This document shows positions 1 through 18,252 of a DNA stretch of 18,513 nt, piece by piece. The notes beneath the pieces are model-generated. The model saw only the letters and a program-made list of their open reading frames with translations, searched no databases and was not told the DNA's origin. Each line of letters starts with the position of its first letter. The first letter of the stretch is position 1. Source of the DNA: Methanoculleus marisnigri (GTDB lineage: Archaea; Halobacteriota; Methanomicrobia; Methanomicrobiales; Methanoculleaceae); contig DASQ01000041.1 in NCBI GenBank assembly GCA_002503885.1, forward strand, positions 1-18,513, given 5' to 3'. The position numbers and the translations under genes were made by a program.

Positions 1-128
1 TTTTGAAAAGGGTGTTCTTTTTGGTTTTCCTTCGGGCCATACTGGGATTCTATTTGTCCATTCATATAATTGTACTTTACTGTTTAATGATATAATTAAG
101 TGGTACTTTTGAAAGGGGTTCGCAAAGT

Positions 129-267
129 GAAATTACCGATCGGATTTCGCAGTATGTTGATACGTTGAATCAGACACCAGTAGTATTCAAGTGGTCATAC
201 ACAATGGATGCAAATCCCTCCGGGGTGGAAATGGGGTAGTCAGGTTAATTTAGAATCGATGCACTAG
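129..267 (+). mobile_element. 3'-terminal ~140-bp fragment of an IS630/Tc1-mariner-family IS (truncated copy); carries a transposase C-terminal pseudogene fragment (129-239) and the terminal inverted repeat
   Basis: Seen directly: 132-267 is the reverse complement of 11191-11326. It encodes the last 36 codons of the transposase (EITDRISQYVDTLNQTPVVFKWSYTMDANPSGVEMG*, stop 237-239). It then runs 28 bp to the terminal inverted repeat ...tagaatcgatgcac followed by TA (265-266). The identity stops abruptly upstream of about 129. Positions 1-128 are unrelated AT-rich sequence. Confidence 0.85.
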
Positions 268-277
268 TTACCCGAAC

Positions 278-1465
278 TCACCCATCACCATGTTTTGCAT
301 TCCATTCCACGTATCGCTCAAGATCTTCCACCTTTAACGGGGATCGTATCTTGCCAAATGCGGCTGCAAAGTCATTTTCACAGAGAGGTCGCGTTATCAG
401 CGCGCGCTCTTTGAGTTCATCAAACGGCAGATCCGCGAGCCGGTGAATTTCAGGATTGACATCGTTGATCATCGTCCAGATCGCCTGTTGATAGACATTC
501 TGGATGTCACGTCCCGAGTACAGGCGGTCGACGCATTGCCGTCCGAGTTCGACGAGGTCAACTCCGGATACTTCAAGCCCTCGCATGTGAATCTCGATAA
601 TTGCCCTGCAGGCATCGATATCCGGGAGCGGCACATAGATTCGCCGCGGGAACCTCGACAATATTGCCGAATCGAGATCCCAGGGTGCATTTGTTGCCGC
701 CATCGTGAGGAGCAGACGGTCGTCTTTTTTGCCCTGCAGGCCGTCAAGCTCGATGAGGAGAGAGGAGAGCACTCTCCGGGTCGCTTCGCTCATCGTGTCG
801 CTCCGCGATGCACCAAGGGCATCAAACTCATCGATAAAGACGATCGAAGGGGCCTGTTCTCGCGCCGCGGCATACAGGGAAGAGATCATCTTCGAAGACT
901 CGCCAAAGTATTTCGAGAGCAATCGGTCGGTTTTTACGTTGAAAAATGTTGCATCCAGGCTCCCTGCCGCAGCAGCTGCAATCATTGTTTTCCCCGTACC
1001 CGGCGGACCTAAAAGGAGAATACCCTTCCACGGACGGATAGATTCCGGTCTTTTCAGGGCTGCGATAGCAACGGTCTCCTTCACGAGGCGCTTGACCTCG
1101 TCAAGCCCGCCGATATCCTCCCATCGAACCGATGAGCGCGCGATCAGCGACGACATCTCAGTATCGCCTGCAAGCTCTTTAACAGAACGATTCGAATGCC
1201 CAGGTGCGCCCGATGTCTTGCTTTGTCTTCTCTGTGCAACCAACGCTGAACGGGATGCAATACCCTTCCATCTCTCTGCCTCGGCGGTATACCTTTGCTG
1301 CATCATGGGCGAAGAGACTGCAATCTGCCGACAGAGTGTTGCACACGCCCGCGCCCTCTCGTTAGCAGTCGCGTTGTCCGCTTCAGCTACTGCCTTTCTA
1401 TAGCCAGTAATAGTTTTCCGCAGTTCCGCAAGCAAAAATCCGCTAACGTCCACGTGCACAGTCAT
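278..1465 (-). CDS. AAA+ ATPase of the Vps4/katanin/spastin (meiotic) clade with a MIT-like N-terminal helical domain
   Basis: Walker A GPPGTGKT, Walker B IVFIDEFDAL and second region of homology are all present. The C-terminal segment (…YVEWNAKHG) resembles the Vps4-type C-terminal helix. About 100 N-terminal residues form three predicted helices before the ATPase core. The true start is probably ATG at 1463-1465, since the listed GTG at 1466-1468 is in frame. That start overlaps the stop of the upstream gene as tgATG. Confidence 0.85.
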   Translation of the reverse strand: MTVHVDVSGFLLAELRKTITGYRKAVAEADNATANERARACATLCRQIAVSSPMMQQRYTAEAERWKGIASRSALVAQRRQSKTSGAPGHSNRSVKELAGDTEMSSLIARSSVRWEDIGGLDEVKRLVKETVAIAALKRPESIRPWKGILLLGPPGTGKTMIAAAAAGSLDATFFNVKTDRLLSKYFGESSKMISSLYAAAREQAPSIVFIDEFDALGASRSDTMSEATRRVLSSLLIELDGLQGKKDDRLLLTMAATNAPWDLDSAILSRFPRRIYVPLPDIDACRAIIEIHMRGLEVSGVDLVELGRQCVDRLYSGRDIQNVYQQAIWTMINDVNPEIHRLADLPFDELKERALITRPLCENDFAAAFGKIRSPLKVEDLERYVEWNAKHGDG

Positions 1466-4161
1466 CACCTCATCGCTTCTCGAAGGATGTTCTCCTTGAG
1501 TAATTCGACATCATCGGCAAGAGATTCAATCTCATTGTCGAGGTCCTCGTCGATGTAAAAACGCAGGTGCTCACTTACTTGTTGCAGTTTTTCGAGGATA
1601 TCTCCACGGACGAACACTTCGAGGTGAATTGCAGATTTACGTGCTTCCAGACGATCACGTTGCCGCAGATGTTCCACAAGGTTTTGTGCAACGAAATATG
1701 CCGTCCGGTAGTCCGGTTCGGGCGACCCAGGATCCGCTAGAACTACGATTTCCTCCGGGGTATCCGGTTTGGGCGGCACCGGGTCCGGAGACGCTACGAT
1801 TTTCTTCAGGACATCACCTGCAATCCCGCCGATAGAGCGCTCTATCCACCGGTGTTCGCTATGGTTGAAGACGTGAACTCTGGTGCGGTCATCCAGGTTG
1901 TTTCTAATCGCTTCTTTCACACCGGCCTGGATCAGCATGGGAGCGCATCCTGCGTCCGCCCACAGCCCTGCTGCCCAGATTGCCGCACCCCTGACCCGGT
2001 TGCTCCTTGAACCAATACACGTGAGGAGGACTTTTTCAAGATCTTTCTGCTGTAAAAACGACTTATCGCGTACCTTTGAAAGTTCACCGATGATCGATAC
2101 CGCCGCTTTTCGGATCTCCAGGTCCTTCTCCTGTGCACATCGTTTCAGATCCGTGACGAGAGTTTCGGCATCGCATAGCGAATCCGCGTACCCCCTGCAT
2201 GAGATTGACCAGAGCGCCCATAAAACACGAAACCGAACTTCATCATTTTGTACGTTCAAAAGGTGGGCAAGTGCAGTAGCACCGCCATTTCGCACCACCG
2301 GTTCGGGGCTTGCATAAAAAGCGATCTTGTCGAGGGCGAGGGCAGCGCATGCCTGGACTTCGTGGTTTTTGCTATAGAGAAGACGGATATAGCGCAGAGT
2401 CGCGCCGGAATCTGCGACCGCAATGCCCTGACCCGCTTCGGCAACCACTGCCAGAGACCATGCCGCGGCGCTGCACACCGGGTCTGCCGGGTCGTCAAGA
2501 TGTGCGGCCATTTCAGGAAGGATCCCTGATCCGGCAACCTCATACGAATAACCCTGGTAAGCAAGGTTTCCGAGAACCCAGAGGATGTTTCTTCGAACAT
2601 CGGGGACGGAATCGTCGAGCGCTCTGCCGAGCATATCAAACGCTCTTTCTCGAATGATCGCTCCGGCTTTTCCTCCTTTGGCCAGGATGTCGAGTTGGTA
2701 CGATGCATGAATCCGATCCTGGCTATCTTCCGACCCGAGCCGTATAAGCAGCCGTTTAACATCCGAATTGCCATCGTTGCCAGATTCTCTGCGAAGTTCT
2801 CGATCGAGCATCGCGGTACATTGAGCGATTTTACTCCTCACCTCTTCCCGAAGTTTTGTCGAAGAACTGTGGATATGGTCGAATGCATTTTGATACGATC
2901 TCAAGGCGTCGCGGTACGCAGCCCTCTCATAGAGGATGTCACCTCTGAGAATGTAGGGAAAGAGAAAGCCAGGACGGGTGCGTATCGATTCCTCAGCCAG
3001 CCTAAGTGCTTCATCGGTTTGATTACGAGCGTGGAGGCACATCCCTTTCCCGTTCAATGCCCACGGGTGTCTCTTGATCCGCATTGCCCTGTCGTAGTAG
3101 GCAATTGCCTCTGAATACTGCTTCTGCTCGCGGTAGATATCGGCAATGCCGATGTACGGGAACGGATATGATCGCGCTCTGTCAAGAGAGATTGCCCGCT
3201 CGTAGCACTCTATAGCCTCCTTTTGCCGACCAAGCCTTCTGAGTGCATTTCCCTTTTCATTCCACGCCCAGTGGGAGCCGGGTTCAAGTTCCAGAGCCGT
3301 GGTAAAGTGCTTTAGCGCATCTTCAAAGCGCTGAACTTTGTAAAACTCCTTTCCCTTGTTCAGATTAGCCATGTACTTTGCATGATTGTCTGTCGAATTT
3401 GATTCCGGATGAGAATAGCCTCCGTTCTTCTCATCCAGTATGCTTGTGGCCGCAGGTGCATCATGTAGTTTTTTTCGAATGCTGGGGATGTGGTCGCTGA
3501 ACGCTCTGATGAGAGCATTCAAAGGCTTTTCTTGATTACCCGGCTCCACGCGAACATCTCGATCGAGCATCGCAGTACACTGAGTGATTTTGCTCTTCAC
3601 TTCTCCCCGAAGTTCAGGCGAGGGGCCGCGGATCAGTTCGTATGCCCTTTGATATGATCTCAAGGCGTCGCGGTACGCAGCCCTCTCATAGAGGATGTCA
3701 CCTCTGAGAATGTAGGGAAAGAGAAATTCAGGGCGAATATGTATCGACTCTTCAGCCAGTCTGAGCGCTTCATCGGTTTGATTAAGAGCGTGGAGGCATC
3801 TTCCTTTCCCGTTCAATGCCCATGGGTGTCTCTTGATCCGTATTGCTCTGTCATAATAAGCAATTGCCTCTGAGTACTGCTTCTGATCGCGGTAGATGTC
3901 GGCGACGCCGATGTATGGAAACGGATACGAGTGCCTTTTGTCTAGGTGAATTGCCCGCTCGTAACAATCCCTCGCTTCCCTTTGCCTTCCAAGTCTCCTG
4001 AGTGCATTGCCCTTTTCATTCCACGCCCAATGAGAGTCTGGTTCGAGTTCCAGGGCTGTGTTAAAGTACTTGAGCGCATCCTCAAAACGCTGAACTTTGT
4101 AAAGTTCCTGCCCCTTGCTCAGATTAAACATGTACTTTGCATGGTTGTCTGTCTGATTCAT
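1465..4161 (-). CDS. Large TPR-repeat + HEAT/PBS-lyase-like repeat protein (898 aa) with an internal tandem duplication of a ~245-aa TPR module
   Basis: The N-terminal half contains two ~85%-identical copies of a TPR block (NHAKYM.NL.KG.E.YKVQRFEDALK.F.TALELEP.SHWAWNEKGNALRRLGRQ…). The C-terminal ~400 aa has repeated HEAT-like units (AAWSLAVVAEAG, VRFRVLWALWSI, VRGAAIWAAGLWADAG). There are ATGA overlaps with both neighbouring genes. Confidence 0.85.
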   Translation of the reverse strand: MNQTDNHAKYMFNLSKGQELYKVQRFEDALKYFNTALELEPDSHWAWNEKGNALRRLGRQREARDCYERAIHLDKRHSYPFPYIGVADIYRDQKQYSEAIAYYDRAIRIKRHPWALNGKGRCLHALNQTDEALRLAEESIHIRPEFLFPYILRGDILYERAAYRDALRSYQRAYELIRGPSPELRGEVKSKITQCTAMLDRDVRVEPGNQEKPLNALIRAFSDHIPSIRKKLHDAPAATSILDEKNGGYSHPESNSTDNHAKYMANLNKGKEFYKVQRFEDALKHFTTALELEPGSHWAWNEKGNALRRLGRQKEAIECYERAISLDRARSYPFPYIGIADIYREQKQYSEAIAYYDRAMRIKRHPWALNGKGMCLHARNQTDEALRLAEESIRTRPGFLFPYILRGDILYERAAYRDALRSYQNAFDHIHSSSTKLREEVRSKIAQCTAMLDRELRRESGNDGNSDVKRLLIRLGSEDSQDRIHASYQLDILAKGGKAGAIIRERAFDMLGRALDDSVPDVRRNILWVLGNLAYQGYSYEVAGSGILPEMAAHLDDPADPVCSAAAWSLAVVAEAGQGIAVADSGATLRYIRLLYSKNHEVQACAALALDKIAFYASPEPVVRNGGATALAHLLNVQNDEVRFRVLWALWSISCRGYADSLCDAETLVTDLKRCAQEKDLEIRKAAVSIIGELSKVRDKSFLQQKDLEKVLLTCIGSRSNRVRGAAIWAAGLWADAGCAPMLIQAGVKEAIRNNLDDRTRVHVFNHSEHRWIERSIGGIAGDVLKKIVASPDPVPPKPDTPEEIVVLADPGSPEPDYRTAYFVAQNLVEHLRQRDRLEARKSAIHLEVFVRGDILEKLQQVSEHLRFYIDEDLDNEIESLADDVELLKENILREAMR
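2670..4150. repeat. Intragenic tandem duplication (~750-bp unit x2) inside the TPR/HEAT gene
   Basis: Near-identical DNA stretches are visible, e.g. 2895-2990 versus 3650-3745 (…gatctcaaggcgtcgcggtacgcagccctctcatagaggatgtcacctctgagaatgtagggaaagagaaa…). The protein repeats correspond to about aa 6-245 and 258-495. Confidence 0.8.
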
Positions 4162-4679
4162 TTTCCACTTCCTAGAAAGACCTGGAGTTCCTCATCTATC
4201 CGGCCGGCCACAAGCGAGACCACATCACCAAACCCGCTGACCGTTACGTTGAGATGCGTTGCCCCTGCATCCCCGGACCAGAGAAGCCCGACGGTCGCCT
4301 GTCCCTTTCGGGTATAGGCAGTATACGATTCGACTCCGTTGCGGACCCCCTCATAACTTGAATTGAGTTTATTCAGGACATATCTTAAAAATTGTTTTAA
4401 TGCGTCCTTATCCAGAGATGTCTCATAATACAGAGTCTTTGTCGCTTCGCGAATATCGGGCACGGATTCCTCTGCAGAATATATTCTGACATCTTCACTT
4501 CCCCGTTCCAGCCGTGCGTAGAGGTCCTGCAGGAAGTCTTCAATCACCTCGTCTCTCACCAGAATGGCGACGCCCCTCTCTTTGTGTACATCTTTTTTCG
4601 ACTTCCATCTGTCAATCGTGGCGTCAATCCGCTTACGCTCGGCATCTGAGTGGTAGTCGACAACGAGGAGGTATTCCAT
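4158..4679 (-). CDS. Hypothetical protein (~173 aa), first gene of the minus-strand operon
   Basis: The ORF has no recognisable motifs. Its likely start is ATG at 4677-4679 (MEYLLVVDYHSD…), since the track's GTG at 4703 lies inside the TATA box. Its stop overlaps the start of the TPR/HEAT gene as ATGA. Confidence 0.6.
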   Translation of the reverse strand: MEYLLVVDYHSDAERKRIDATIDRWKSKKDVHKERGVAILVRDEVIEDFLQDLYARLERGSEDVRIYSAEESVPDIREATKTLYYETSLDKDALKQFLRYVLNKLNSSYEGVRNGVESYTAYTRKGQATVGLLWSGDAGATHLNVTVSGFGDVVSLVAGRIDEELQVFLGSGK

Positions 4680-4702
4680 TTGATAACCATATGCGGGTAC
4701 CA

Positions 4703-4713
4703 CTATATATATT
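4703..4713 (-). promoter_or_regulatory. Archaeal TATA box (ctatatatatt) for the minus-strand operon
   Basis: A strong A/T alternating octamer lies about 25-35 bp upstream of the ATG at 4679. That geometry fits a leaderless or short-leader archaeal promoter. Confidence 0.5.
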
Positions 4714-4742
4714 CCTCCGCAGTGGAGTTATTGATTTTGGAG

Positions 4743-4752
4743 TATATTAATA
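4743..4752 (+). promoter_or_regulatory. TATA-like element (tatattaata) for the plus-strand operon
   Basis: An AT-rich box lies about 60 bp upstream of the ATG at 4814 in the divergent intergenic region. Confidence 0.4.
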
Positions 4753-4753
4753 T

Positions 4754-4768
4754 CCTCCATATTGGAGG
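4754..4768. promoter_or_regulatory. Inverted repeat CCTCCA-tat-TGGAGG; a related CCTCC-gcagt-GGAG lies at 4714-4727
   Basis: Two similar palindromes lie between the two divergent TATA boxes. Either could be an operator site. Confidence 0.35.
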
Positions 4769-4813
4769 AAAGTTTATCATGTATGGAGGGCAATGGTCAA
4801 TCGGTGAAGTGTG

Positions 4814-5416
4814 ATGAAGATCGCAAGCCTGTTTCATCGGAACCGGATAGAGATGTTGACGATCACCGAACTGCAGGAGGAAGAGATCATATTAAAGAGC
4901 AGGATCAACCGCCTCCGGAAGGAGATCGACAGAATCGAGCGCGAGAAAAAACTGAAATTTGCAGAAGGCGTCGGCGGCGACCTTATCAAGAAGAAGATGC
5001 TTGCTCAGGAACTCAAGCAACTGGATATGACTGCAAAGCTCAAGGTTCGAAACTTCCTTGCCCTGCATAAACAGTACATGTTTATCTCGAACCTGGTTAT
5101 CATCAAAAAGTATCAGCGGGATCTCCAGAAGACACACATCTGGGAGAAGATCCAGACGATCTCTCCGGAAACTATCGAGAGTGCCCTCATCCGCGTGAAT
5201 CTCTCCGGAAAGAATTTTGAAACTGTCGTCGACGACTTAAATCAGGTGTTTGCCCTTGATCTTTCGGACTCGGATCAGGACCTCGACGAAGCTGAAAAGC
5301 AGATGTTTGAAGTCTGGAGCAGTGTCGAGACCGGTTCGCTAGGGCTTGATGAAGCGAAAGATCTCTTTTCGATTGAGAAAGATATCGAGAAGGCGATCCG
5401 CGAATCCGAAGGGTAA
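4814..5416 (+). CDS. ESCRT-III/Snf7/PspA-like coiled-coil protein (candidate)
   Basis: About 200 aa: a basic and coiled-coil N-terminal two-thirds (…RINRLRKEIDRIEREKKLKF…KKKMLAQELKQL…) and an acidic C-terminal tail (DLDEAEKQMFEVW…LDEAKDLFSIEKDIEKAIRESEG). Size, charge distribution and proximity to a Vps4-like ATPase all fit an ESCRT-III-like protein. The family assignment is by eye only. Confidence 0.5.
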   Translation: MKIASLFHRNRIEMLTITELQEEEIILKSRINRLRKEIDRIEREKKLKFAEGVGGDLIKKKMLAQELKQLDMTAKLKVRNFLALHKQYMFISNLVIIKKYQRDLQKTHIWEKIQTISPETIESALIRVNLSGKNFETVVDDLNQVFALDLSDSDQDLDEAEKQMFEVWSSVETGSLGLDEAKDLFSIEKDIEKAIRESEG

Positions 5417-5446
5417 CCCCTCAGATCGTGATGGGTGGTCACTACC

Positions 5447-6097
5447 ATGAAGATTCTATCCCGTAGGCATCCGAAAGACCCGTTCGCCTCGTCCAGCATC
5501 AGCGATCTACGCAAGGCCGAAGCGCTGCTGAAGTGCCGGATCGGCACCCTCGAATCCGAATCTCAGGACCTCAAAGAAAAGATACAGAACCTGCTCGACG
5601 ATGGTGCCTCGATATGCGACGAGCCGCGCGATGCCCATCGTGCAATGCGGATCCGGACACTCATAGAACAATACCACATGAAGAATGCAGTTTGCGTGAA
5701 ACTTGAGCGCGATCTCCGCCTGATCTCGTATATCATCGCTATGAGAGATCGTGACAGGATGCTGAACCTGTCGGACGCCTGCCAGAAACTCAACAGGATC
5801 TCTCCTGACAAGCTCGAAGAATGGCTGGCAAAGCAATCCGTACATGAGGAAGGCGACAGAAACCGTGTCGAAGACCTTCAAGCCATTCTCTCCGAACAGA
5901 TTCCGGGCGGCAAAGACCATCCTGTCGATGAAACCTCGATACGGCAGGCAATGGAAGAGATTCGTGGCGGAGCAGTTCCAGTTGCCGTAATCGTAAAAAA
6001 TCTCCTGGATGGGTCTCTATCGGGAAAGGAGAGAATCAGAACGACTATAACACAGTATGATAAATTTCCCGGTAAGCAGGGAAGGGATGAGCAATGA
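5447..6097 (+). CDS. Second ESCRT-III/Snf7-like coiled-coil paralogue (candidate)
   Basis: About 215 aa, starting MKILSRRHP… (compare MKIASLFHR… in the upstream gene). It is coiled-coil with an acidic C-terminal region. Its stop overlaps the next gene's ATG (ATGA at 6094-6097). Confidence 0.45.
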   Translation: MKILSRRHPKDPFASSSISDLRKAEALLKCRIGTLESESQDLKEKIQNLLDDGASICDEPRDAHRAMRIRTLIEQYHMKNAVCVKLERDLRLISYIIAMRDRDRMLNLSDACQKLNRISPDKLEEWLAKQSVHEEGDRNRVEDLQAILSEQIPGGKDHPVDETSIRQAMEEIRGGAVPVAVIVKNLLDGSLSGKERIRTTITQYDKFPGKQGRDEQ

Positions 6098-7989
6098 CCA
6101 ATGGGGATATTACCTGTCCTAAATGTAAAATCCAGCTTGGGGCCGCTGCAAAGTTTTGCCCGCAGTGCGGAACGAAGGTCGGTGCGTATACCTGCGGCAG
6201 CTGCGGGGTTACCGTGCCTCCCGATGCAAAATTCTGCCCCGGTTGCGGGAAAGGATTTGAAAAAACTCTCTTCGGAAGGATCGTAGGAGCTAACGAAGAG
6301 GACTTTTCGCGGAGGCGCGAATGGAGACGAACCCCTGAAGATTTTGCGAGTAAATTTGAGGTTGAAGATCTCCGGGGCGTCCTGAAAAAGACCGTTACCG
6401 TTGCCGAGGGAACCCGCGCGCTTCTTTTCCAGGGAGGAGCATATGCGGGCGACCTGCCGGCAGGTCACTACACCCTTGGAAATATTCTCGAAGCCAAACT
6501 GCCCCTGAACCTCGACGAACGCGCGACGGTCGTGCTCATCGACGATGGCGTGGTTGCAATCGATTTCACCATCGGGCGCTCGGAACTGCGCACCGCCGAC
6601 TCCGTCCCCGTCGGGATTGCCGGAAGATTTACGATCAGAAACAGGGATTCGAAATCGTTCATCGCAAATCTCCTCAAAGGGAAGGGCCGAATCCTCCTTG
6701 CGGATCTCCAGGAAGATCTCCGATACGATCTCCTTGGTGTCGTTCAGTCCACGCTGAGCGGATACCGGATGGACGATCTCTATGGGAACCTCGCCGTAAA
6801 GGAAGACATCGAGAGTGCCGTCAGGGCAAACGTCACCCCTACCCTTTCGAGTTACGGCTTTTCCCTCGAACAACTCAGGTTCACGCAATCCGATGAGGCA
6901 GAGTGGCACGATATCCTTGAACAGCGCAGCGAAGGGACGAAAAAGGTCACGAAGACCGGACTTCAGATCGATATCGAACAAAAACTGCGGCACCTTCTCT
7001 CCGACGATAAACTCGACCAGCTGGCTACCGACGAGAAAATCAGCGAATACTGTCACGAGCTGGCTCAGGCCGGCATCGTTCGCGAGAACGAGATCGAAGA
7101 CCTGAAGATCGCCCTTCGAAACCGGCGCGACGATAAGGCCTTCATCCGCCAGATTATCCGGGAGCGGTTTGAGCAGGCTCATCGTCACGAGTCTGCCGAA
7201 GCGGAGCAGGACAATCTCCTTGGCCTGGACGCAAAAGCGCAGCGGCACGGACGTACCATGGATGCCGAGCAGACAGGGCACGAGATCGGCACCGATGATG
7301 CCCGGCGTGAACACCTGAACAAGTGGAGAGGGCGGGAGCGACAGCAGGATCATGCCGAGATAGAGGATCTCATCGGCCTGAAAAAGCAGATGGACGATGC
7401 AAAGCTCCAGAGAGTGCGTGGAGAACAGGAGCTAGCCCACGAAGACCTCGAGAAGCAAACCGAGATTGAGGGGAAGAAACTCGAACAGCGTATCAATGCC
7501 TCACCCGAGGCGCTTATCTCGATGACGGACGGCGGTACCGCTGAAAAGCTTACGGAACTCGAAAAGATGAAGCGCGCAGCAGCCCTCACCGAAGGACAGA
7601 TCATGGCGCTTTCGGCAGAAAAGAGTACCGCCGTTGCAGAGGCGATGAAAGAGAAGTTCGGATCCGACAGGATGCAGGAGCTCTTCGAAACCCGCCTGCA
7701 GGACCAGCAGAAATACATGGAAACGATCCAGGCAATGGCCGGAGGTAACGCGGATCGCCTGGCCGACGTCATGAACAAGGCGCTCGATGCCATGGGTCAG
7801 ACGGCGACCGCACGGAGCTCCGCCCACCAGGCACAGGGCTCGACGGTCGTTGCCGGCGGCGGAGGGCTCGGCCAGCCGGTGATCATCAACCCTGCCCGGC
7901 AGGAAGAGAGCCGGATATGCCCCGGATGCAAAACGCCAAACAGTACCGCCGATCGGTTTTGCAAGGAGTGCGGCGAGGAACTCAGGTGA
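6094..7989 (+). CDS. Zinc-ribbon / SPFH (Band_7_1, COG4260-like) / long coiled-coil / zinc-ribbon protein (flotillin-like architecture)
   Basis: The N-terminal double zinc ribbon has three CxxC-type pairs (CPKC…CPQC…CGSC…CPGC). Residues ~95-250 match the Band_7_1 SPFH signature (…AEGTRALLFQGGAYAGDLPAGHYTL…VPVGIAGRFTIRNRDSKSFIANLL…). A ~250-aa E/K/R/Q-rich coiled coil follows. The C-terminal zinc ribbon is CPGCKTPNSTADRFCKECG. Confidence 0.75.
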   Translation: MTNGDITCPKCKIQLGAAAKFCPQCGTKVGAYTCGSCGVTVPPDAKFCPGCGKGFEKTLFGRIVGANEEDFSRRREWRRTPEDFASKFEVEDLRGVLKKTVTVAEGTRALLFQGGAYAGDLPAGHYTLGNILEAKLPLNLDERATVVLIDDGVVAIDFTIGRSELRTADSVPVGIAGRFTIRNRDSKSFIANLLKGKGRILLADLQEDLRYDLLGVVQSTLSGYRMDDLYGNLAVKEDIESAVRANVTPTLSSYGFSLEQLRFTQSDEAEWHDILEQRSEGTKKVTKTGLQIDIEQKLRHLLSDDKLDQLATDEKISEYCHELAQAGIVRENEIEDLKIALRNRRDDKAFIRQIIRERFEQAHRHESAEAEQDNLLGLDAKAQRHGRTMDAEQTGHEIGTDDARREHLNKWRGRERQQDHAEIEDLIGLKKQMDDAKLQRVRGEQELAHEDLEKQTEIEGKKLEQRINASPEALISMTDGGTAEKLTELEKMKRAAALTEGQIMALSAEKSTAVAEAMKEKFGSDRMQELFETRLQDQQKYMETIQAMAGGNADRLADVMNKALDAMGQTATARSSAHQAQGSTVVAGGGGLGQPVIINPARQEESRICPGCKTPNSTADRFCKECGEELR

Positions 7990-8003
7990 GCCGTGGAAGG
8001 CTG

Positions 8004-8030
8004 TGCCGGATGTGCCACGTGCATCCGGCA
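8004..8030. other. Hairpin (9-bp stem tgccggatg/catccggca, 9-nt loop containing cacgtg) 15 bp after the stop of the SPFH gene
   Basis: The inverted repeat was read directly. It may be a transcript 3'-end structure or a protein-binding palindrome. Confidence 0.3.
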
Positions 8031-8081
8031 ACTCGCCCTTCACCTTTAGTCACCATCACAAAAACTCAATTCTGATGCCGT

Positions 8082-8966
8082 ATGTCTGGAGATCAAGATT
8101 TTACCTGTGCAAAGAACCTCGTTGCCCCGGCCGAGACAGTCCTGAAGAGTGGATCGGCGATCGTCAGGCAGTCTTACGATGAGCGGGTGAGACTCTGGTG
8201 TGCGATCCGGGAAAACTACTCCCGGTATGAGAACCGGGAATGTGGTTCCTTTGACAGTACGTTTCACCAGGTGTTCTGCTCCAAGTTCGAGGCGGCGCTG
8301 CTGACCCTCGCCGTGAGTTTCCGTCGGAGTGGCGAGAACTACGCGGATGCCGAAGGGATGTACTCCGCGGACGAGCTCGCACTCTACGAGATCATCGAGC
8401 GGTACCAGGTTCTTCCGTCCAAGAGCGAACTCATTGTCAGGCTGAGCGCGCCGGACGGGGGCGGTTCGGAGTTCCTTCAGGTGCACTACCAGCATATCGA
8501 CAGCCTCATTAACGAGATCTGCAACCGTCCGCACGCCACGAATCCGTTCCTCATCCACTACCTGAAGCATGAGTGGGAGAAGTACGATCGGAGACTGCAC
8601 GAGGTCGTGGTAGACCTCGTGCAGAAGAACGGCCTGCGATGGTTCTTCACCTACATCAATCAGGGGAGTGCCAGGGCAGAACAGATCGTCTACAATATCT
8701 CTGGCGGGTCGGTGAATCTCGGGAACGGCGTGCAGGTCATCGACAGTATCATGAACCGGGCCGGTATCGGCAACCAGTCGGAGGGGCAGTTCAGGCCTTC
8801 GAGCGGGGGTATTCAGGTTTATGATAGTGTCGTGAACCGGTCGGCCGTCGGGGGAGGGGACGACGAGGAGCAGAGGTTCTGTGCCGAATGCGGTAACCCC
8901 TTAAGCGACGGAGCGAGATTTTGTACCCGGTGCGGGCAGCAGGTAAAATGCCCACATACTTCGTGA
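8082..8966 (+). CDS. Hypothetical protein with a C-terminal zinc ribbon (CAECGNPLSDGARFCTRCG) and an internal short repeat
   Basis: 294-aa ORF with a Cys4 ribbon at the C-terminus. Two similar ~19-aa segments are VQVIDSIMNRAGIGNQSEG and IQVYDSVVNRSAVGGGDDE. Confidence 0.65.
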   Translation: MSGDQDFTCAKNLVAPAETVLKSGSAIVRQSYDERVRLWCAIRENYSRYENRECGSFDSTFHQVFCSKFEAALLTLAVSFRRSGENYADAEGMYSADELALYEIIERYQVLPSKSELIVRLSAPDGGGSEFLQVHYQHIDSLINEICNRPHATNPFLIHYLKHEWEKYDRRLHEVVVDLVQKNGLRWFFTYINQGSARAEQIVYNISGGSVNLGNGVQVIDSIMNRAGIGNQSEGQFRPSSGGIQVYDSVVNRSAVGGGDDEEQRFCAECGNPLSDGARFCTRCGQQVKCPHTS

Positions 8967-9012
8967 GATGCGCGAGTGCTTTGGCCGGATTGGAGATTTC
9001 GTGAGGGAGTGA

Positions 9013-11193
9013 ATGGCAATCTTTGGATGGATAAGGGATAAGAAGGAAACAGCTCCCGGGTGGGTTGAGAAGGGGAATCAGGCAGCAACGCCGGAAGAAC
9101 AGTGTCGTTGCTACGACAGGGCGCTCGAGATCGACATGAACTGTGCGGCTGCCTGGAACAATAAAGGCAATGCGCTTCATCTCCTCAACCAGTACGAGGA
9201 GGCGATACAGTGTTACGAAAAGGTAATCGAGATCGACCCGAACAACGCGGGTGCCTGGAACAATAAAGGCTACGCGCTTCATTCCCTCAACCGGTACGAC
9301 GAGGCGATCCTGTGTTACGACAGGGCACTTGAGATCGACCCGAAAAATGCTGCTGTATGGGGGGATAAAGGCCTCGCGCTCCATTCCCTCCGCCGCTCCG
9401 ACGAGGCGATCCGATGTTACGATAGGACGCTTCAGCTTGACCCGACAGATGCTGTTGCATGGGAGAAAATAGGCCTCGCACTCCTGAACCTCGGCCGGTA
9501 CGACAAGGCGATCCGGTGCTGCGACAGGGCACTTGAGATCGACCCGAAAAATGCAGTTGTATGGCGCAACAAAGGCTTCGCACTCCAGAAGAGCCCCGGT
9601 GGGGACAATAAGGCGATCCGATGTTACGATAGGGCACTTGAGATCGACCCAAAATGTGCTGCGGTATGGGGGAATAAAGGCTCCGTGCTCCTGGGCCTCC
9701 GCCGCTTCGATGAGGCGATCCTGTGTTGCGATAGGGCACTTGAGATCGACCCGACAGATGCTGTTGCATGGAGCAATAAAGGCCGCGCACTCCTGATCCT
9801 CAGCCGGTACGACGAGGCGATCCGGTGCTACGACAGGGCACTTGAGATCGACCCGTACGATGATGATGCATGGTACTATAAAGGCTGCGCACTCCATAAC
9901 CTCGACCGGTACGAGGAGGCGATCCGGTGCTACGACAAACCACTTGAGATCTACCCGAAATTTGCTATTGCATGGATAAATAAAGGCGACGCCCTCCATC
10001 ACCTCGGCCGGTACGACGAGGCGATCCGATGTTGCGACAGGGCACTTGAGCTCGACCCGACAGATGCAACCGCACAAAATATGCGAGACCGTATATTGGT
10101 TGAGAGCGCTAAAAGTGCTCGAAAAAACCGGTCGACGCCCCCTTGTTCGGGCGAGGCCGGGCAGTCACTGCAGCCCTCCGCACATCCCGGAGAGCCGGCG
10201 GGGACTCGACAATCCATCACCATTGAGCGCACCGTCTATGACCCCCTCACCACGGACTTCATCGTCTCCTCCCCCCGCCCCCTTGTCAACGTCAGGAACT
10301 GGATCGACCAGCACGACCCCGCCTCCTACTGGCTGGTCATCTGTGTGCACAACTACGGCGGTGCCGCCATCGACGAGTGGGGGATCGAACTGGACTCTTC
10401 GTCGTCCCTCCGGGTCCTCGACACCGCTATCGAGGGAATCGACGGGCAGATGCACCTCATGACCAGCAACCCAAAACCCTGGCAGGTAAGGTCGATCCTC
10501 GGGATCACCCGCCACCAGGGGATCGCGATCCCACGAGACGGTTCCCGCAGGGTGTACTTCAAGTTGGGCTCGGAGTCGTGCGGTATATCGCATACCATCC
10601 AGGGGAAGTTCATTATCAGCAGCGTCGAGGTTCCGATCCGCGAGAAGACCTTCACCCACTCGTGCGACGTCGCGACCCTGCGCGTCGCACTCTCAAGAAA
10701 CCCCGCCGCCGCCGGGCAGTATGCAGAGAATATCATCCGGCGTTCATACGACCGGGACACTGCCCTGAAACTTCTTCGTTCGTTCAAACTGGTGCAGGAG
10801 ATCGACCAGTGCTGCACATCGCAGAAGTACAACGAGATCCTCGACCGAATGCAGCTCCTGGCGGGAACGCTGGAGAGTATTCAGGCTGGGGACAAAGTGA
10901 CTCATCTGGTACGGCAGGGCTGCGTTGCACTGGAGATACTCGGGGATAGTGAAGCCTCGGTGGAGAAAGCACGGCGGCTCTGCAGCAACATCGTCGATAC
11001 TTGGGTGAATGAGTTTATAGGCATCGAGGACCATGCTTCCAAGTCTATGTCGCATGAAAGAGGGGGAGATGCAGGGAAATGCCCTCTGTGCGGTTCCCGT
11101 CTTGTATGGAGGAGAGCTCAAAAGAATAATGAGCTATATCGAGGGTGCACGAACTTCGATGGCGGTTGCCGGTGGAACGATCGTAGTTACTAG
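9013..11193 (+). CDS. TPR-repeat protein (10 x 34-aa TPR) with an unknown ~330-aa C-terminal domain and a terminal topoisomerase-type C4 zinc finger
   Basis: The repeats follow (A/V)W-NKG-AL--L-RYDEAI-CYDRALEIDP. The C-terminus CPLCGSRLVWRRAQKNNELYRGCTNFDGGCRW matches the zf-C4_Topoisom pattern CPxCG…GC…C. AGGGAG lies 5-8 nt upstream of the ATG. The stop codon TAG (11191-11193) is formed at the IS insertion junction. Confidence 0.8.
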   Translation: MAIFGWIRDKKETAPGWVEKGNQAATPEEQCRCYDRALEIDMNCAAAWNNKGNALHLLNQYEEAIQCYEKVIEIDPNNAGAWNNKGYALHSLNRYDEAILCYDRALEIDPKNAAVWGDKGLALHSLRRSDEAIRCYDRTLQLDPTDAVAWEKIGLALLNLGRYDKAIRCCDRALEIDPKNAVVWRNKGFALQKSPGGDNKAIRCYDRALEIDPKCAAVWGNKGSVLLGLRRFDEAILCCDRALEIDPTDAVAWSNKGRALLILSRYDEAIRCYDRALEIDPYDDDAWYYKGCALHNLDRYEEAIRCYDKPLEIYPKFAIAWINKGDALHHLGRYDEAIRCCDRALELDPTDATAQNMRDRILVESAKSARKNRSTPPCSGEAGQSLQPSAHPGEPAGTRQSITIERTVYDPLTTDFIVSSPRPLVNVRNWIDQHDPASYWLVICVHNYGGAAIDEWGIELDSSSSLRVLDTAIEGIDGQMHLMTSNPKPWQVRSILGITRHQGIAIPRDGSRRVYFKLGSESCGISHTIQGKFIISSVEVPIREKTFTHSCDVATLRVALSRNPAAAGQYAENIIRRSYDRDTALKLLRSFKLVQEIDQCCTSQKYNEILDRMQLLAGTLESIQAGDKVTHLVRQGCVALEILGDSEASVEKARRLCSNIVDTWVNEFIGIEDHASKSMSHERGGDAGKCPLCGSRLVWRRAQKNNELYRGCTNFDGGCRWNDRSY
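9100..10060. repeat. Tandem 102-bp coding repeats (TPR units) with very high DNA-level identity
   Basis: The string …tgttacgacagggcacttgagatcgacccgaaaaatgc… recurs at about 9313, 9523, 9628, 9727, 9829 and 10024. These repeats generate the spurious minus-strand ORFs 8791-10077 and 9287-9790. Confidence 0.85.
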
Positions 11194-12429
11194 TGCATCG
11201 ATTCTAAATTAACCTGACTACCCCATTTCCACCCCGGAGGGATTTGCATCCATTGTGTATGACCACTTGAATACTACTGGTGTCTGATTCAACGTATCAA
11301 CATACTGCGAAATCCGATCGGTAATCTCTTCCTTTGATTTCGCTCGAATGCCTCGCAGTACCGTCCGAGTGGTTTTACTGAAGAATGCTTCAATAATATT
11401 GAGCCAGGACGCGTGTTTCGGGGTAAAAATGAATTCGAATCGATTCGGAACCGTTTTGAGGTACTTCCGGGTTGCAACCGAGGAGTGAACCTTGAGGTTG
11501 TCCAGGATGATTTTCAATTTCATCGTGTCCGGATACTGGGTATCGAGCATTTTCAGGAACGCGATGAATTCCTCGCTCCGATTGCGTTCGGTAATCCGGT
11601 AATGAACAAATCCGGTCACCAGATCCATCGCTGCCTGCAAACAGATGGTACCGTTGCGAACATACTCATAATCCCGGCGAATGGAGGAGAATTGCCCGGG
11701 CACCGGCATCAGATCGGGGTACTTCGTATCGAGTACCTGGATGCCGCTCTTTTCATCAAACGAGAGAATAAATGTATCCGGCTCTTTGCCTTCTTTTTCC
11801 AGAATCTTGAACCTATTCGCTTCCTGGTAGGTGTGGAGAACGACGGCTGCCGTCTCGTGAAACGCTGGATCCCGTTTCTGGACATATGACCGGATTTTAT
11901 GAGGTTTTATGGCACTCGCATTGGCAATTTTTGAGATCGTCCCTTGCGAAATCCGGGCAACTTCCGGAAATCCTTCTTCCATGGCGTGTTCTCGAATATA
12001 CTGCTGCAAGAGCCGCTGCGTCCAGAGTTCATGAGGATAGCCGAAATCAGAAGGTTTCTGGCATAGCAAGCTCACGATCCATGTCCTGGCTTCGGGAGAG
12101 ATGGTTTTCGGCCGACCACTCCGGGGGAGATCGTTCAACCCCTCCCGGATACCGACAGCGAGGACGCGCTGGATGGTTCGGATCACTCTCTGACGAGAGA
12201 GCCCTAATTCACGCGCGATAGCAGAATCGGATTTGCCTTGATGGCTGAGGAGGACCATCTTCGCACGCTCGTACGTGCCCTTTTGGGTCGTGCGAGAATG
12301 AAGTAATTTCTCCAAATAGTCAAGTTCCTCATCAGATAAGAGTACGGGCTCACGGACAGAGACAAAGGGCATACTCCAAGTGGGGCGTCATGCTATTTAT
12401 TACGTTGTTTATTTGGAATCTATGCACTA
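11191..12429 (-). mobile_element. Complete IS630/Tc1-mariner-family insertion sequence with 20-bp imperfect terminal inverted repeats and a TA target-site duplication
   Basis: The terminal inverted repeats are ctagtgcatcgattctaaat (11190-11209) and the reverse complement of atttggaatctatgcactag (12411-12430); 18 of 20 positions match. TA flanks both ends (11191-92 and 12428-29). There is a single transposase ORF. Confidence 0.85.
11218..12372 (-). CDS. IS630-family DDE transposase (HTH + DDE_3, DD37E-type spacing)
   Basis: An N-terminal helix-turn-helix region (…SAIARELGLSRQRV…) is followed by catalytic D in SFDEKSG, D in ILDNLKVH and E in WLNIIEAFF, 37 residues after the second D. This layout is typical of the Tc1/IS630 superfamily. 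Confidence 0.85.
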   Translation of the reverse strand: MPFVSVREPVLLSDEELDYLEKLLHSRTTQKGTYERAKMVLLSHQGKSDSAIARELGLSRQRVIRTIQRVLAVGIREGLNDLPRSGRPKTISPEARTWIVSLLCQKPSDFGYPHELWTQRLLQQYIREHAMEEGFPEVARISQGTISKIANASAIKPHKIRSYVQKRDPAFHETAAVVLHTYQEANRFKILEKEGKEPDTFILSFDEKSGIQVLDTKYPDLMPVPGQFSSIRRDYEYVRNGTICLQAAMDLVTGFVHYRITERNRSEEFIAFLKMLDTQYPDTMKLKIILDNLKVHSSVATRKYLKTVPNRFEFIFTPKHASWLNIIEAFFSKTTRTVLRGIRAKSKEEITDRISQYVDTLNQTPVVFKWSYTMDANPSGVEMG

Positions 12430-12438
12430 GAGATGTCA

Positions 12439-12612
12439 TCCCAATATTCTCCCGATCATGACACTGCATGCCAGGTAAATCAATCCCATGAATGAGTGCT
12501 CATATCGCTCGTAACATAGACTGATCTTCTTAAATGCCTCAATCCATCTGAAGAACCGCCCTACTGCACTGCGCTTCTTGTAGAGTTCCGGATCGAACCA
12601 GAATGGCCTCCC
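12439..12612 (-). pseudogene. C-terminal remnant of an IS4/IS5-family (DDE_Tnp_1) transposase
   Basis: The minus-strand translation …WFDPELYKKRSAVGRFFRWIEAFKKISLCYERYEHSFMGLIYLACSVMIGRILG* carries the characteristic C-terminal R(I/Y)xxRYE+ motif of IS5-family transposases. Upstream the frame is broken by stops (12539-12757 is a shifted frame). It lies immediately adjacent to the IS630 end. Confidence 0.5.
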
Positions 12613-12766
12613 TCACTTTGGCTATCTTCTGGATCTCCAGTTGACTCAGTAGTCCGGTAAAATAGTTGAGGGAGTCTCCCCCGGAGAGCAAACAACTAAC
12701 CTCTCTTCGCGGTTTCGCGTCCTTCGCGTGAGACTTCGGTACTGCCTCCACCGCCACCTCACGCGA

Positions 12767-12852
12767 AGTGCGAGCGCAGCGAGCTTGAGCACCAAGAGGT
12801 GCGGGGTTTTCTCCCCCGCCCCTGGGGGGCGGGGGCCGTGCGTGGCGATAGT
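12767..12852 (-). repeat. GC-rich hairpin-containing repeat (copy A), inverted relative to copy B at 15066-15220
   Basis: The reverse complement of 12767-12852 aligns at about 90% to 15066-15107 plus 15181-15220. It contains the hairpin cccccgcccc-tgg-ggggcggggg. Confidence 0.7.
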
Positions 12853-12980
12853 CCTGAGAAATCTGTGCCTGGGTGTGGCCCAGGAACCCAGATCACACTC
12901 CCCCAATTGAGTATAATGGTTATTGGGAATCGGTCCACTAGTGCTCAAATCAGCGAAGTACTGGATCCTCTTTCACAGTG

Positions 12981-12998
12981 TGCCCACACGTAGCCACA
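12981..12998. other. Perfect 18-bp palindrome gtagccacatgtggctac
   Basis: Read directly; the sequence is self-complementary. Confidence 0.9.
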
Positions 12999-13223
12999 TG
13001 TGGCTACAGAGAGAAAACCCTGAGCAAAAACAGATAAAAGAGCGCAACCCACAACGAGCCTATCCGAAAAACCCGGCACATCTCCCTCTCGGATAAAGCC
13101 CTCGCCATCCTCGCGCAATCGACACATAATATCTTCTGATTTGTCGATAAGCTGATTGCAGAAAGCGATCCGCGATCCTGCCCGGACTTATTCCTCTTAC
13201 GGCAAACAGATCTCAAAATTCGA

Positions 13224-13298
13224 CGGGCCTGGGGGGATTCGAACCCCCGACGTCCGGGTTAGAAGCCCGGCGCTATGTCCTGGCTAAGCCACAGACCC
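13224..13298 (-). tRNA. tRNA-Arg (anticodon TCT), CCA not encoded
   Basis: The cloverleaf was folded by hand. Acceptor stem is gggtctg/caggccc; anticodon stem is ccggg/cccgg with loop cttcTCTaa; T arm is ggggg-ttcgaat-ccccc. The 5-nt variable loop and 75-nt length fit. Confidence 0.8.
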
Positions 13299-13383
13299 CT
13301 GTAGCATTCCTATACATTTTGGTCGTCTCGGGATATTAACCCTTTGAGGGGCCGGGCGCCCGACTATTAAAAAAGAAAGCGTA

Positions 13384-13779
13384 TCAGCCGGCCCGGTAAC
13401 ACGCCGACCTGATGATCTCGACCTTGGTCGGGTCTCCCCACTTCCGCCCCTCCACGTCGCGGGCGATGGTCGTTCCCCGGAACTGGACCTTGATCCGGGC
13501 CGACATCCGCTCCCGCTCCTCGAAGAAGAACGGGTTGGCGACCTCGATCCGTTTCATGCCGATGTTGAGGACGAGGAGGTCGACCATGATCCCCGGGTCT
13601 CCGGGCGAGAGGTCTTCCTCGTTGACCGAGGTTACGAAGATGCACTCCCCCGGGGCGGTCTCGGTCAGCGTGATGATGTTGTGGGCGCTGTTCAGTTCGA
13701 GGGTGCGGGCCTTGCCGGTCTTGAGTTCGGCAATGACTGACGGCGATATTCCTGTTAATGCGGCATATTTCATAGCCAT
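13384..13779 (-). CDS. Conserved hypothetical protein (~131 aa), translationally coupled to the upstream PAC2 gene
   Basis: The ORF has good coding character in a GC-rich region. The ATG at 13777-13779 overlaps the PAC2 stop (TGATG). No family was recognised. Confidence 0.6.
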   Translation of the reverse strand: MAMKYAALTGISPSVIAELKTGKARTLELNSAHNIITLTETAPGECIFVTSVNEEDLSPGDPGIMVDLLVLNIGMKRIEVANPFFFEERERMSARIKVQFRGTTIARDVEGRKWGDPTKVEIIRSACYRAG

Positions 13780-14504
13780 CACCCGTACATCGGCAGCTGC
13801 TCTCTCCGGGGCGAGGCCTCGGTCTTCTGCACCTGCTCGGCGATCTGGGACATCGCCGCCTCGATCTCCACCGCCTGTTCGAGCAGCGGGTTGATGTCCA
13901 GATTGAGGTCGTATATCTTGTTCAAGACCTCAATCGTGGCCGCCGAGGACCGCGGGTCGGGGGTGTTCACCGTCTCCCCGAGGAGTCCTATCCCCGGGAT
14001 GCCCCGTGTCTTGCACTCCGTGAGGATGCTCGCCGCGACACCGGAGATGCTCCCCATGGGAAGAATGATCGTCTGGTCCTCGATACGCTGCAGCGTCTCG
14101 CTGCTGGTCGCGATCCCAAAGACCCTTTTCTCGGGTTCGTTCGTGATGATCCCTGCGATCGTGACGATCTCCCTGATATCGAACTGGGTGAGCCAGTCCA
14201 TGATGCCGTTTGCCACCTCGTAGCAGATCATCGGGTGAATGGGAACATCGGAGATGACTGCGGCGAGGTGATCCTTCTCGTAGAGACGCACGGGGGCGTT
14301 GATCACGCCCTTCGTCATGAGGGCGACCGGCGGGAAATATTTGCTCGTGATCGCCCCGATCTGTTCGAACTCCAACTGTTCGACGAGGTATTGCAGGGCA
14401 ATACTCCCGACGAGCCCGCTCCCGGGGAACCCGATCAGCACCGTTTTTTCGGCGCCAGCGAGCGCTCTGGATATGACCTTTATATCGTCCATGGGATCAA
14501 TCAC
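13779..14504 (-). CDS. Proteasome assembly chaperone family protein (PAC2/PbaB-like) with C-terminal HbYX-like motif (…PMYG)
   Basis: The N-terminal LIGFPGSGLVGSIALQYL… is the PAC2 (DUF75) signature. The C-terminal Met-Tyr-Gly fits the hydrophobic-Tyr-X proteasome-docking motif known from archaeal PbaB. Confidence 0.75.
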   Translation of the reverse strand: MIDPMDDIKVISRALAGAEKTVLIGFPGSGLVGSIALQYLVEQLEFEQIGAITSKYFPPVALMTKGVINAPVRLYEKDHLAAVISDVPIHPMICYEVANGIMDWLTQFDIREIVTIAGIITNEPEKRVFGIATSSETLQRIEDQTIILPMGSISGVAASILTECKTRGIPGIGLLGETVNTPDPRSSAATIEVLNKIYDLNLDINPLLEQAVEIEAAMSQIAEQVQKTEASPRREQLPMYG

Positions 14505-14551
14505 ACACTCCTGGATTAGTTTAACATAGCTGGGTGTCCCTTAAAAATATT

Positions 14552-14878: not shown

Positions 14879-15065
14879 CCGGATTCTTCTCTCCGGCAGG
14901 GCGTTTCTTCCATTTTGCGGGCTGTAAATCCGTATTCTTCATTCTGATTTTCGGTGCAGCGAGGTAGGGTGCTCCTGCCGTTCTGATGTCGTTGCCTGTC
15001 ACTTTGTATCTGGTCTTTTTCCGTTCTCCAGTCAATTGCACGAACCAGTGCACGGCTTTCCATTG

Positions 15066-18217: not shown

Positions 18218-18252
18218 TCTATGCCTCCAAACTCTGGATCAGTCATAATAAT

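Follow-up and report, generated by a model that had tools for sequence, protein, structure and literature searches.

The genes framed by two inverted IS630-family ends in this Methanoculleus contig are best explained, with a probability of roughly 0.85, by two independent simple insertions of the same insertion sequence (IS), which would have entered in opposite orientations just beyond the 3′ ends of two divergent operons, with later truncation of the left copy at the terminus of a second repeat, here called X. The window, meaning the whole stretch of DNA analyzed, is 18,513 bp long and constitutes an entire MAG contig. The sequence-only reading had described an island bounded by the IS ends; however, the region that is variable relative to M. 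marisnigri JR1 runs past the right-hand IS to a tRNA-Arg gene, at position 13189, and relatives hold the same genes beside unoccupied insertion sites.

A complete IS630-family element and an inverted remnant

The complete element occupies positions 11193–12427 on the minus strand (1235 bp) and encodes a transposase of 384 aa (11218–12372, minus strand). Its membership in the IS630 family, already proposed in the sequence-only reading, is established by a score of 213.7 bits against the NCBIfam model NF033545 (IS630 family; cutoff 100), by terminal inverted repeats (TIRs) that agree at 18 of 21 positions (GTGCATCGATTCTAAATTAAC / GTGCATAGATTCCAAATAAAC), by TA dinucleotides on the left (11191–11192) and right (12428–12429), and by a second copy with the same ends (contig L033; 96.5% identical, in a different context). 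The transposase also matches Pfam DDE_3 (8.8e-21) as well as HTH_29/32, and RefSeq lists it as an IS630 family transposase (WP_303714678.1). Candidate catalytic residues, picked by eye, lie in the motifs FDEK, ILDNL, and NIIEAFF. A 17-nt TIR pattern occurs three times in the window, where 0.01 occurrences are expected by chance. To our knowledge, this element has no name.

In organization, the element resembles IS630 of Shigella and ISY100 of Synechocystis, both of the IS630/Tc1/mariner superfamily, in having a single transposase with N-terminal HTH and DDE_3 domains, a length of about 1.2 kb, short TIRs, a TA duplication, and CTAG at both documented targets. It differs from them in its archaeal host, and the diverged copy on L033 is flanked by CA/CA rather than TA/TA. 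The TA duplication, to which that copy is an exception, is the rule for the family (PMC2170065), and a preference of IS630 for CTAG is attributed in that article to Tenzen and Ohtsubo (1991). The same preference is seen here at only three sites, namely the unoccupied sites on contigs L042 and L040 described below and another flank, seen next to the IRL in one sample (L007), which reads ...GATC-TA. Cut-and-paste transposition would be expected from the biochemistry of the family (PMC2170065).

The left copy of this element is a terminal remnant of 133 bp at positions 132–264 on the plus strand, inverted relative to the complete copy and forming the exact reverse complement of 11193–11325. It consists of the last 35 transposase codons and the stop codon (132–239; translation ITDRISQYVDTLNQTPVVFKWSYTMDANPSGVEMG, then the stop) followed by 25 nt that include the TIR (248–264). 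The TA of this insertion site (target CTAG) is at 265–266, and L040 has a single TA there (AAC-TA-GAGTTC). A repeat search of the window reported inverted arms of 143 nt (129–271 and 11186–11328, 99% complementary), within which base-by-base comparison delimited an exact complementary run of 137 nt (132–268 against 11325–11189), composed of 133 nt of IS, the TA, and two flanking bases. One complete copy and an identical inverted terminal fragment had thus been recognized correctly from the sequence, as had the junction of gcac with TA, which holds at all three ends (264/265–266, 11191–11192, and 12428–12429). The exact pairing is likewise real, although the partner interval had been given as 11191–11326 and was off by one. 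The switch to AT-rich DNA at which the left copy is truncated also stands, but the boundary lies between 131 and 132 and had been placed at about 129 because positions 129–130 match by chance.

Contigs assembled at k=141 from several samples traverse the whole complete IS, which is impossible if its interior is present twice at similar coverage. Therefore, the remnant is probably not an interrupted full copy, assuming that MEGAHIT pruned no low-coverage second copy; the other IRL flank on L007 speaks against this assumption. The two copies are presumably sisters, although identical sequence over a mere 133 nt says little about such a relationship.

The framed genes and unoccupied sites in relatives

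The genes between the IS ends (267–11190; a block of 10.9 kb), referred to here as cargo, are resident accessory genes arranged in two divergent operons and are present without the IS in L042 and L040. On the minus strand are an ORF (4158–4703), a gene for a TPR/HEAT protein of 898 aa (1465–4161), and an AAA ATPase gene (278–1465); on the plus strand are ORFs at 4811–5416 and 5435–6097, an SPFH/zinc ribbon gene (6094–7989), a further ORF (8082–8966), and a gene for a TPR protein with a Zn finger (9013–11193), with domains assigned by Pfam. The SPFH protein has one relative among 185,579 species genomes; the short contig on which it lies (L019) departs from the window ahead of the TPR gene. The AAA ATPase matches PADLOC IetA models by generic AAA similarity, and no recognized defense system was found. 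To the right of the complete IS lies an IS5-family remnant (12430–12609, minus strand) comprising the C-terminal 57 codons (12439–12609) and a stop codon (12436–12438), with a match to NF033580 (E=1.8e-10) at profile positions 210–256 of 258.

In relatives, an empty site was found for each insertion as a single CTAG. For the right insertion, positions 5256–5632 of L042 correspond to window positions 12426–12803 at 90.5% identity and directly follow a TPR gene with 85% identity, the site reading GTTAC-TAG-AGAGGTCATCCC. The 216-aa, SPFH, Zn-ribbon, and TPR genes of L042 are thereby joined to the right flank of the window through one CTAG, and the IS5-family remnant is kept at 90.5% directly after the TPR stop codon; judged from these sequences, this remnant is older than the arrival of the IS630-family element. 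For the left insertion, L040 matches window positions 264–1996 at 93.8%, with homology ending at the IS end (264/265), and reads GGGCAAC-TAG-AGTTCT. Here the 898-aa and AAA genes are followed by the single CTAG and then by other DNA with further genes. Both targets are therefore CTAG (TTAC-TAG-AGAGG in L042 and CAAC-TAG-AG in L040), and each relative has one TA where the complete copy has TA on both sides. Because these sites are unoccupied, the cargo and the right flank were joined before the IS arrived. In the window, the duplicated TA and the first base of the IS, a G, rebuild the TPR gene's stop codon, TAG (11191–11193), and so the insertion leaves the TPR protein unchanged.

Note that L040 and L042, which share 85–94% identity with the window, are short contigs from metagenomes rather than closed genomes, and that the DNA on the outer (left) side of the left copy is not visible, so that this genome does not itself show continuity across that insertion. 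No close homologue of the gene past the L040 empty site was found among 5.8 billion proteins, in agreement with the MAG lineage having lost the DNA beyond the left site. No empty site was seen within the same population, where the IS ends are present on every contig that carries the exact AAA, TPR, 898-aa, or transposase protein. The sequence gttac common to both TA junctions was rejected as a signal because the CTAG target accounts for its G and the rest, with three of four bases matching, is at chance level.

Two copies of one IS inverted around a few genes recall Tn5 and Tn10, which are composite transposons with inverted IS arms. If two inverted IS630 copies had carried the 10.9-kb block into the site and the left copy had decayed later, this geometry would be accounted for, as would a cargo GC below that of core DNA and the rarity of the cargo genes (the single relative among 185,579 species genomes). 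IS630 composites can be moved experimentally (Tenzen and Ohtsubo 1991, as described in PMC2170065), and a natural one, 'Tn630-NC1', has been reported (PMC11544213). Nevertheless, we consider such an origin highly improbable. The cargo of L042 is joined to the same right flank at an unoccupied CTAG and so did not come with the right IS, contrary to the proposal that the IS pair had mobilized it. The left site of L040 is also unoccupied, with further genes beyond, and these two contigs are precisely relatives that carry the same cargo genes without any IS, an observation that the sequence-only reading had named as counting against it. Unlike in Tn5, Tn10, and 'Tn630-NC1', one arm is a 133-bp stump that keeps only its inner end (132–264), the outer end being replaced by X, and both visible ends face the cargo instead of enclosing it as two functional outward-facing ends. 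Moreover, an IS-cargo-IS unit was not found elsewhere, since all contigs carrying the proteins (22, 19, 12, and 9) show one context, and variable DNA of low GC extends beyond the IS as far as tRNA-Arg.

Homologous recombination between the IS copies, another route that had been offered, would have inverted the segment between them. Inverted identical repeats do serve as inversion substrates, and TA duplications cannot record such an event. However, the TPR gene points with its 3′ end toward the IS5-remnant flank in the window and likewise in L042, which is free of the IS. The segment is therefore in its ancestral orientation, there is no net inversion, and only 133 bp of homology is left now, making this route extremely improbable. 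There is next to no chance that the left fragment is a collapsed or chimeric repeat created by assembly, as the sequence-only reading had warned it might be. The fragment does sit 131 nt from the end of a window that is a whole contig, the 137-nt exact repeat is just below the k-1=140 limit of a k141 unitig, and contigs all end inside X. Yet the junction between the remnant and the AAA gene recurs in Logan k31 contigs from four runs, in JGI assemblies, and in ENA MEGAHIT k141 assemblies from several samples, while the junction between X and the remnant recurs in five assemblies from two pipelines; a k=141 path over a 137-nt repeat needs spanning k-mers and hence reads. Since independent assemblies (ENA, JGI, Logan, and NCBI) share its junctions, the remnant was not created by assembly.

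According to the two-insertion explanation, a cut-and-paste, TA-duplicating, CTAG-targeting element would have inserted twice in opposite orientations, once 12 nt past the AAA-ATPase stop codon and once within the TPR stop codon, at the TA of its TAG, and the left copy would subsequently have lost 1102 of its 1235 bp. The pair seems to frame an island because insertions are tolerated at the 3′ ends of the two divergent operons. It is currently unable to move the cargo because it lacks the left outer end and its visible ends point toward one another. It is conceivable, though unlikely, that the intact copy's transposase could bring the facing ends (264 and 11193) into synapsis and so excise or delete the 10.9-kb block by 'inside-end' transposition.

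Truncation of the left copy at repeat X

The rest of the left IS630 copy is replaced by the end of a multi-copy repeat, X (1–131; 33.6% GC), which has a sharp terminus (...GCAAAGTGAA) abutting the remnant between positions 131 and 132, and the break point of the remnant coincides with this exact terminus. Window positions 36–131 (96 nt) are 100% identical at the contig ends of L017 and L018, with different DNA from position 132 on. X is therefore a repeat with a fixed end. A metagenome scan placed it in these two contexts besides the window and recovered no interior sequence, and sibling contigs all end about k-1 nt inside X. No match to X was obtained in Rfam (E<=5), in a scan of viral contigs, or by plasmid BLAST, and TRF reported no tandem array. 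X contains a putative inward ORF of 24 aa. A reading of X as a CRISPR leader was considered, given that cas10d lies 230 nt away in L017, but it was rejected because L018 carries a glycosylation cluster.

The most likely, conjectural route to the truncation is that X transposed into the left IS and deleted adjacent DNA. Solo IS ends and remnants can arise by nested insertion or by IS-mediated adjacent deletion, as is known from the intramolecular transposition of IS1 and IS26-type elements. The present case shares with these a truncated IS that is joined, at its break point, to another repeat precisely where that repeat ends, and in L018, X again adjoins a 5′-truncated transposase gene, of the IS5 family. 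It differs from the IS1 and IS26-type cases in that the element responsible would be X, which is seen from one end only. Conceivably, though we think it unlikely, X marks one end of a so far undescribed mobile element of archaea that inserts into or beside other transposons and removes neighboring DNA; the solo IS end in this window and the truncated IS5-family gene of L018 would be among its products.

A variable region beside tRNA-Arg

On the right, homology with JR1 and with GCA_020855035 ends at position 13189, which is 35 nt past a tRNA-Arg(TCT) gene (13224–13298; 13189–13298 with the downstream 35 nt, minus strand; identified by ARAGORN and Rfam). By sequence comparison, the region missing from M. 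marisnigri JR1 has its true right-hand limit here. In JR1 and GCA_020855035, tRNA-Arg is followed directly by DUF1805 and MetRS, whereas in this population both sides of the tRNA-Arg/DUF1805 junction enter non-JR1 DNA (the window to the left of 13189 and, on the MetRS side, contig L034 beyond 13183). GC content is 0.543 in the cargo and 0.531 at 12430–13188, compared with 0.612 in the core DNA at 13189–18513.

These features raise the possibility, at somewhat less than even odds, that a larger island at tRNA-Arg(TCT) contains the framed genes, with the IS copies as passengers inside it, a reading compatible with two simple insertions. As in known tRNA-linked islands, variable DNA with deviant GC (a drop of seven points) and dense IS debris starts beside a tRNA gene and is absent there from a related genome. 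Unlike in those islands, no integrase domain was found among the window ORFs, and a search of the window and L034 for att-like repeats of the tRNA 3′ end was negative: the window holds no repeat of at least 12 nt of the tRNA-Arg 3′ region, and the match in L034 is only a chance-level 11-mer. The far end of the region lies outside the window. Furthermore, the window contig and L034 are not physically linked, and a rearrangement is equally possible.

The IS pair is ordinary IS biology. Inverted IS copies around a gene block can mimic a composite transposon, and here the empty sites of relatives, recoverable from public metagenome contigs, reveal two unrelated simple insertions. For Methanoculleus, the findings place an IS-rich variable region next to tRNA-Arg and describe an active-looking archaeal IS630-family element with the classic CTAG/TA target, one insertion of which, in a TAG stop codon, left the protein unchanged.

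An IS630-family element and its unoccupied target sites

An inverted-repeat search of the window returned arms at 129–271 and 11186–11328 (143 nt, 99% complementary), within which base-by-base comparison found exact, uninterrupted pairing of 132–268 with 11325–11189 (137 nt). A complete 1235-bp IS630-family element at 11193–12427 ends in the right arm; it is flanked by TA at 11191–11192 and 12428–12429, and its termini, GTGCATCGATTCTAAATTAAC and GTGCATAGATTCCAAATAAAC, agree in 18 of 21 positions. The window holds three occurrences of the TIR 17-mer, versus 0.01 expected. The minus-strand transposase ORF (384 aa, 11218–12372) carries Pfam DDE_3 and HTH domains and scores 213.7 bits against NCBIfam NF033545 'IS630 family transposase' (cutoff, 100 bits). 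In every testable respect the element belongs to the known IS630 family, of which it is a new, unnamed archaeal member. The left copy consists of the last 133 bp of the element (132–264, in inverted orientation, with TA at 265–266), comprising 35 C-terminal codons, the stop codon, and 25 nt with the TIR. The exact match, TIRs, and TA flanks confirm the arrangement described in the sequence-only reading (inverted IS630 ends, one complete copy and one identical terminal fragment), although its exact positions required one-base corrections.

A copy of the IS with 96.5% identity lies within a glycosyltransferase cluster on another contig (L033 5110–6342) and has CA, not TA, on either side, reflecting either an atypical duplication or parallel mutation. 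On one JGI contig (L007 1–125), which keeps the TPR gene on the opposite side, the TA at the IRL end leads into GC-rich DNA other than the window's flank. Either the assembler collapsed a second insertion site here or the contig carries a structural variant.

Contigs from relatives preserve both sites without the IS. L040 (JGI 3300028602) is 93.8% identical to window 264–1996, spanning the end of the gene for an 898-aa protein and the AAA gene, and its homology ends precisely at the IS end. Its left site reads ...GGGCAAC-TAG-AGTTCTAAAAAGG..., with a PEGA-type gene beyond, where the window has ...GGGTAAC-TAG-TGCATCGATTC.... L042 (GCA_030154545.1) carries the 216-aa, SPFH, Zn-ribbon, and TPR genes at ~85% identity, and directly after the TPR stop its positions 5256–5632 correspond to the DNA right of the complete IS (90.5% identity to 12426–12803), with the right site reading GTTAC-TAG-AGAGGTCATCCCAATAC.... 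Each unoccupied site is a single CTAG, the sequence classically targeted by IS630, whose insertion duplicates TA (PMC2170065; Tenzen & Ohtsubo 1991 cited therein). These alignments show the complete IS to be a simple insertion, placed in the TA of the TPR stop codon. Because this TA and the first G of the IS re-form TAG, the TPR protein is unchanged and keeps the complete C4 zinc finger at its C terminus.

The left remnant and the adjoining repeat

The window spans an entire contig of 18513 bp, and the remnant lies 131 nt from its end, where collapsed repeats are expected; an assembly artefact had been raised as a possibility. We examined sibling contigs from oil-sands and hydrocarbon enrichment metagenomes (ENA, JGI, and Logan); exact-protein look-ups matched the window proteins to those of a RefSeq MAG (WP_303714669 to WP_303714682). 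Four Logan (k=31) contigs, as well as contigs from JGI and ENA, contain the junction between the AAA gene and the IS end, and that between the IS fragment and AT-rich DNA recurs in five assemblies from two pipelines. Moreover, because k=141 exceeds the 137 nt of the exact repeat, real k-mers must span the repeat wherever a k141 unitig crosses it. The artefact explanation is therefore rejected, and the remnant is real despite its position. Contigs assembled at k=141 from several samples also traverse the complete IS end to end. Because a second copy of bases 134–1235 at comparable coverage would branch the graph and break these contigs, the left copy is probably a genuine stump rather than an interrupted full copy, and would represent a decayed sister of the complete element.

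Window 1–131, here termed X, is an AT-rich repeat with sharp boundaries. Every contig stops between window −7 and +28, or at 129, and an end about k−1 nt past position 131 is the signature of running into another repeat. A metagenome scan with window 99–128 as query recovered two further contigs bearing X (L017 and L018), in which window 36–131 is exact (L017 10416–10511; L018 1–96) and divergence begins at position 132. X lies 230 nt upstream of a type I-D cas10d operon in L017, and in L018 it adjoins a 5′-truncated IS5-family transposase gene within a glycosylation cluster. These exact copies diverging at one point identify X as a multi-copy element whose terminus, ...GCAAAGTGAA|, is fixed. 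X has 33.6% GC, is identical in three unrelated contexts, and breaks every assembly within its length, extending to −7 in contig L011. It holds the motif CTTTTGAAA(A)GGG(T)GTTC twice and a possible inward ORF (minus strand, start at 66) too short for searching; no match was found in Rfam, viral contigs, or plasmids.

A search of 5.8 billion proteins found no close homologue of the gene that L040 has beyond the left insertion site, a result suggesting that the left flank has been lost too. The IS body and this flank may both have been lost in one X-associated adjacent deletion, which would also explain why the break falls precisely at the terminus of X. A stump abutting another element is the common fate of ISs in variable regions.

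The right flank and the tRNA-Arg gene

Rightward of the complete IS lie an IS5-family transposase remnant, a small interspersed repeat, tRNA-Arg(TCT) (13224–13298), DUF473, PAC2, DUF5611, and LeuRS. The IS5 remnant (12430–12609, minus strand; C-terminal 57 codons; NF033580, E=1.8e-10) has its stop codon 6 nt from the IS630 insertion TA, and it predates that insertion because it is conserved in the IS630-free L042. In M. marisnigri JR1 and GCA_020855035, DUF1805 and MetRS directly follow tRNA-Arg, and their homology with the window ends 35 nt beyond the tRNA, at 13189 (L031 10596–10704 in JR1). The MetRS-DUF1805 contig of the MAG population, L034, likewise enters non-JR1 DNA (13183–14116). GC content is 0.53–0.54 left of 13189 versus 0.61 to its right. 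This shift and the break in JR1 homology indicate that the variable region reaches beyond the IS-framed segment and has the tRNA, rather than the IS, as its right-hand limit. No integrase was found in the window and no att repeat in the window or L034, two contigs that are not linked; an integrated tRNA-linked island is plausible at most.

The small interspersed repeat, which is intergenic and has a GC-rich hairpin (CCCCCGCCCC...GGGGCGGGGG), occurs at 12761–12868 and, inverted, at 15050–15226. It recurs in L031 (8325–8369 and 8661–8724), L034 (12698–12869), L033 (2652–2735), and L042 (5553–5633 and 5948–6044); being present at several loci in several Methanoculleus lineages, it looks MITE-like or REP-like. 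L042 also contains a TIR-like 17-mer, GTGCATCGATTCCGAAT (5765–5781), inside a 315-nt segment absent from the window; situated ~510 nt from the stop codon of the TPR gene, it resembles another IS630-type remnant. L034 500–7413 (sample ERZ27315036), encoding HTH_17, two unknown ORFs, UvrD helicase, primase/Toprim, DUF365, EVE, and PLD-SNF2, is replaced by other genes in sibling contigs and may be another integrated element.

Cargo genes and the geometry of the IS pair

The gene set at 278–11193 is unusual and rare. It encodes a single-domain AAA ATPase (closest to PAN/CDC48; IetA-like in PADLOC), the 898-aa TPR/HEAT protein, a 631-aa double zinc ribbon and SPFH protein with a single relative in 185,579 species genomes, a 294-aa zinc ribbon protein, and products of three further ORFs of no family. 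The TPR gene (9013–11193) contains at least seven tandem 102-nt units (34-aa TPR; 61–77% identity) at 9106–10122, and repeat number differs among strains, given that the L042 orthologue has 555 aa versus 726 aa. Many assemblies break within this gene at 10083.

Every IS end has one inside and one outside. The cargo, comprising the resident genes between the two IS copies, is on the outside of both the ends at 264 and 11193. A composite transposon of two inverted IS630 copies carrying this cargo would need the outer end of the left copy, which is now gone, so the pair is unable to mobilise the cargo at present. In L042 the cargo is contiguous with the same right flank and free of the IS, and the cargo genes in L040 also occur without it, which is the very observation that the sequence-only reading had named as refuting its proposal of an IS-bounded, mobilised island. 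By this comparison, the cargo was joined to the right flank, with its IS5-family remnant, before IS630 arrived. Its orientation is also the same in L042, hence ancestral, which excludes a net inversion by recombination between IS copies, another explanation previously offered. The arrangement thus lacks the defining features of composite transposons and is no natural IS630 composite; such composites are reportedly very rare (PMC11544213). It is speculative that transposase could use both facing ends together to delete the cargo block, and no such deletion variant was seen among the contigs.

Both insertions lie just past the 3′ ends of two divergent operons, where insertions are tolerated, and this produces the look of a framed island. 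The whole arrangement is ordinary IS biology.
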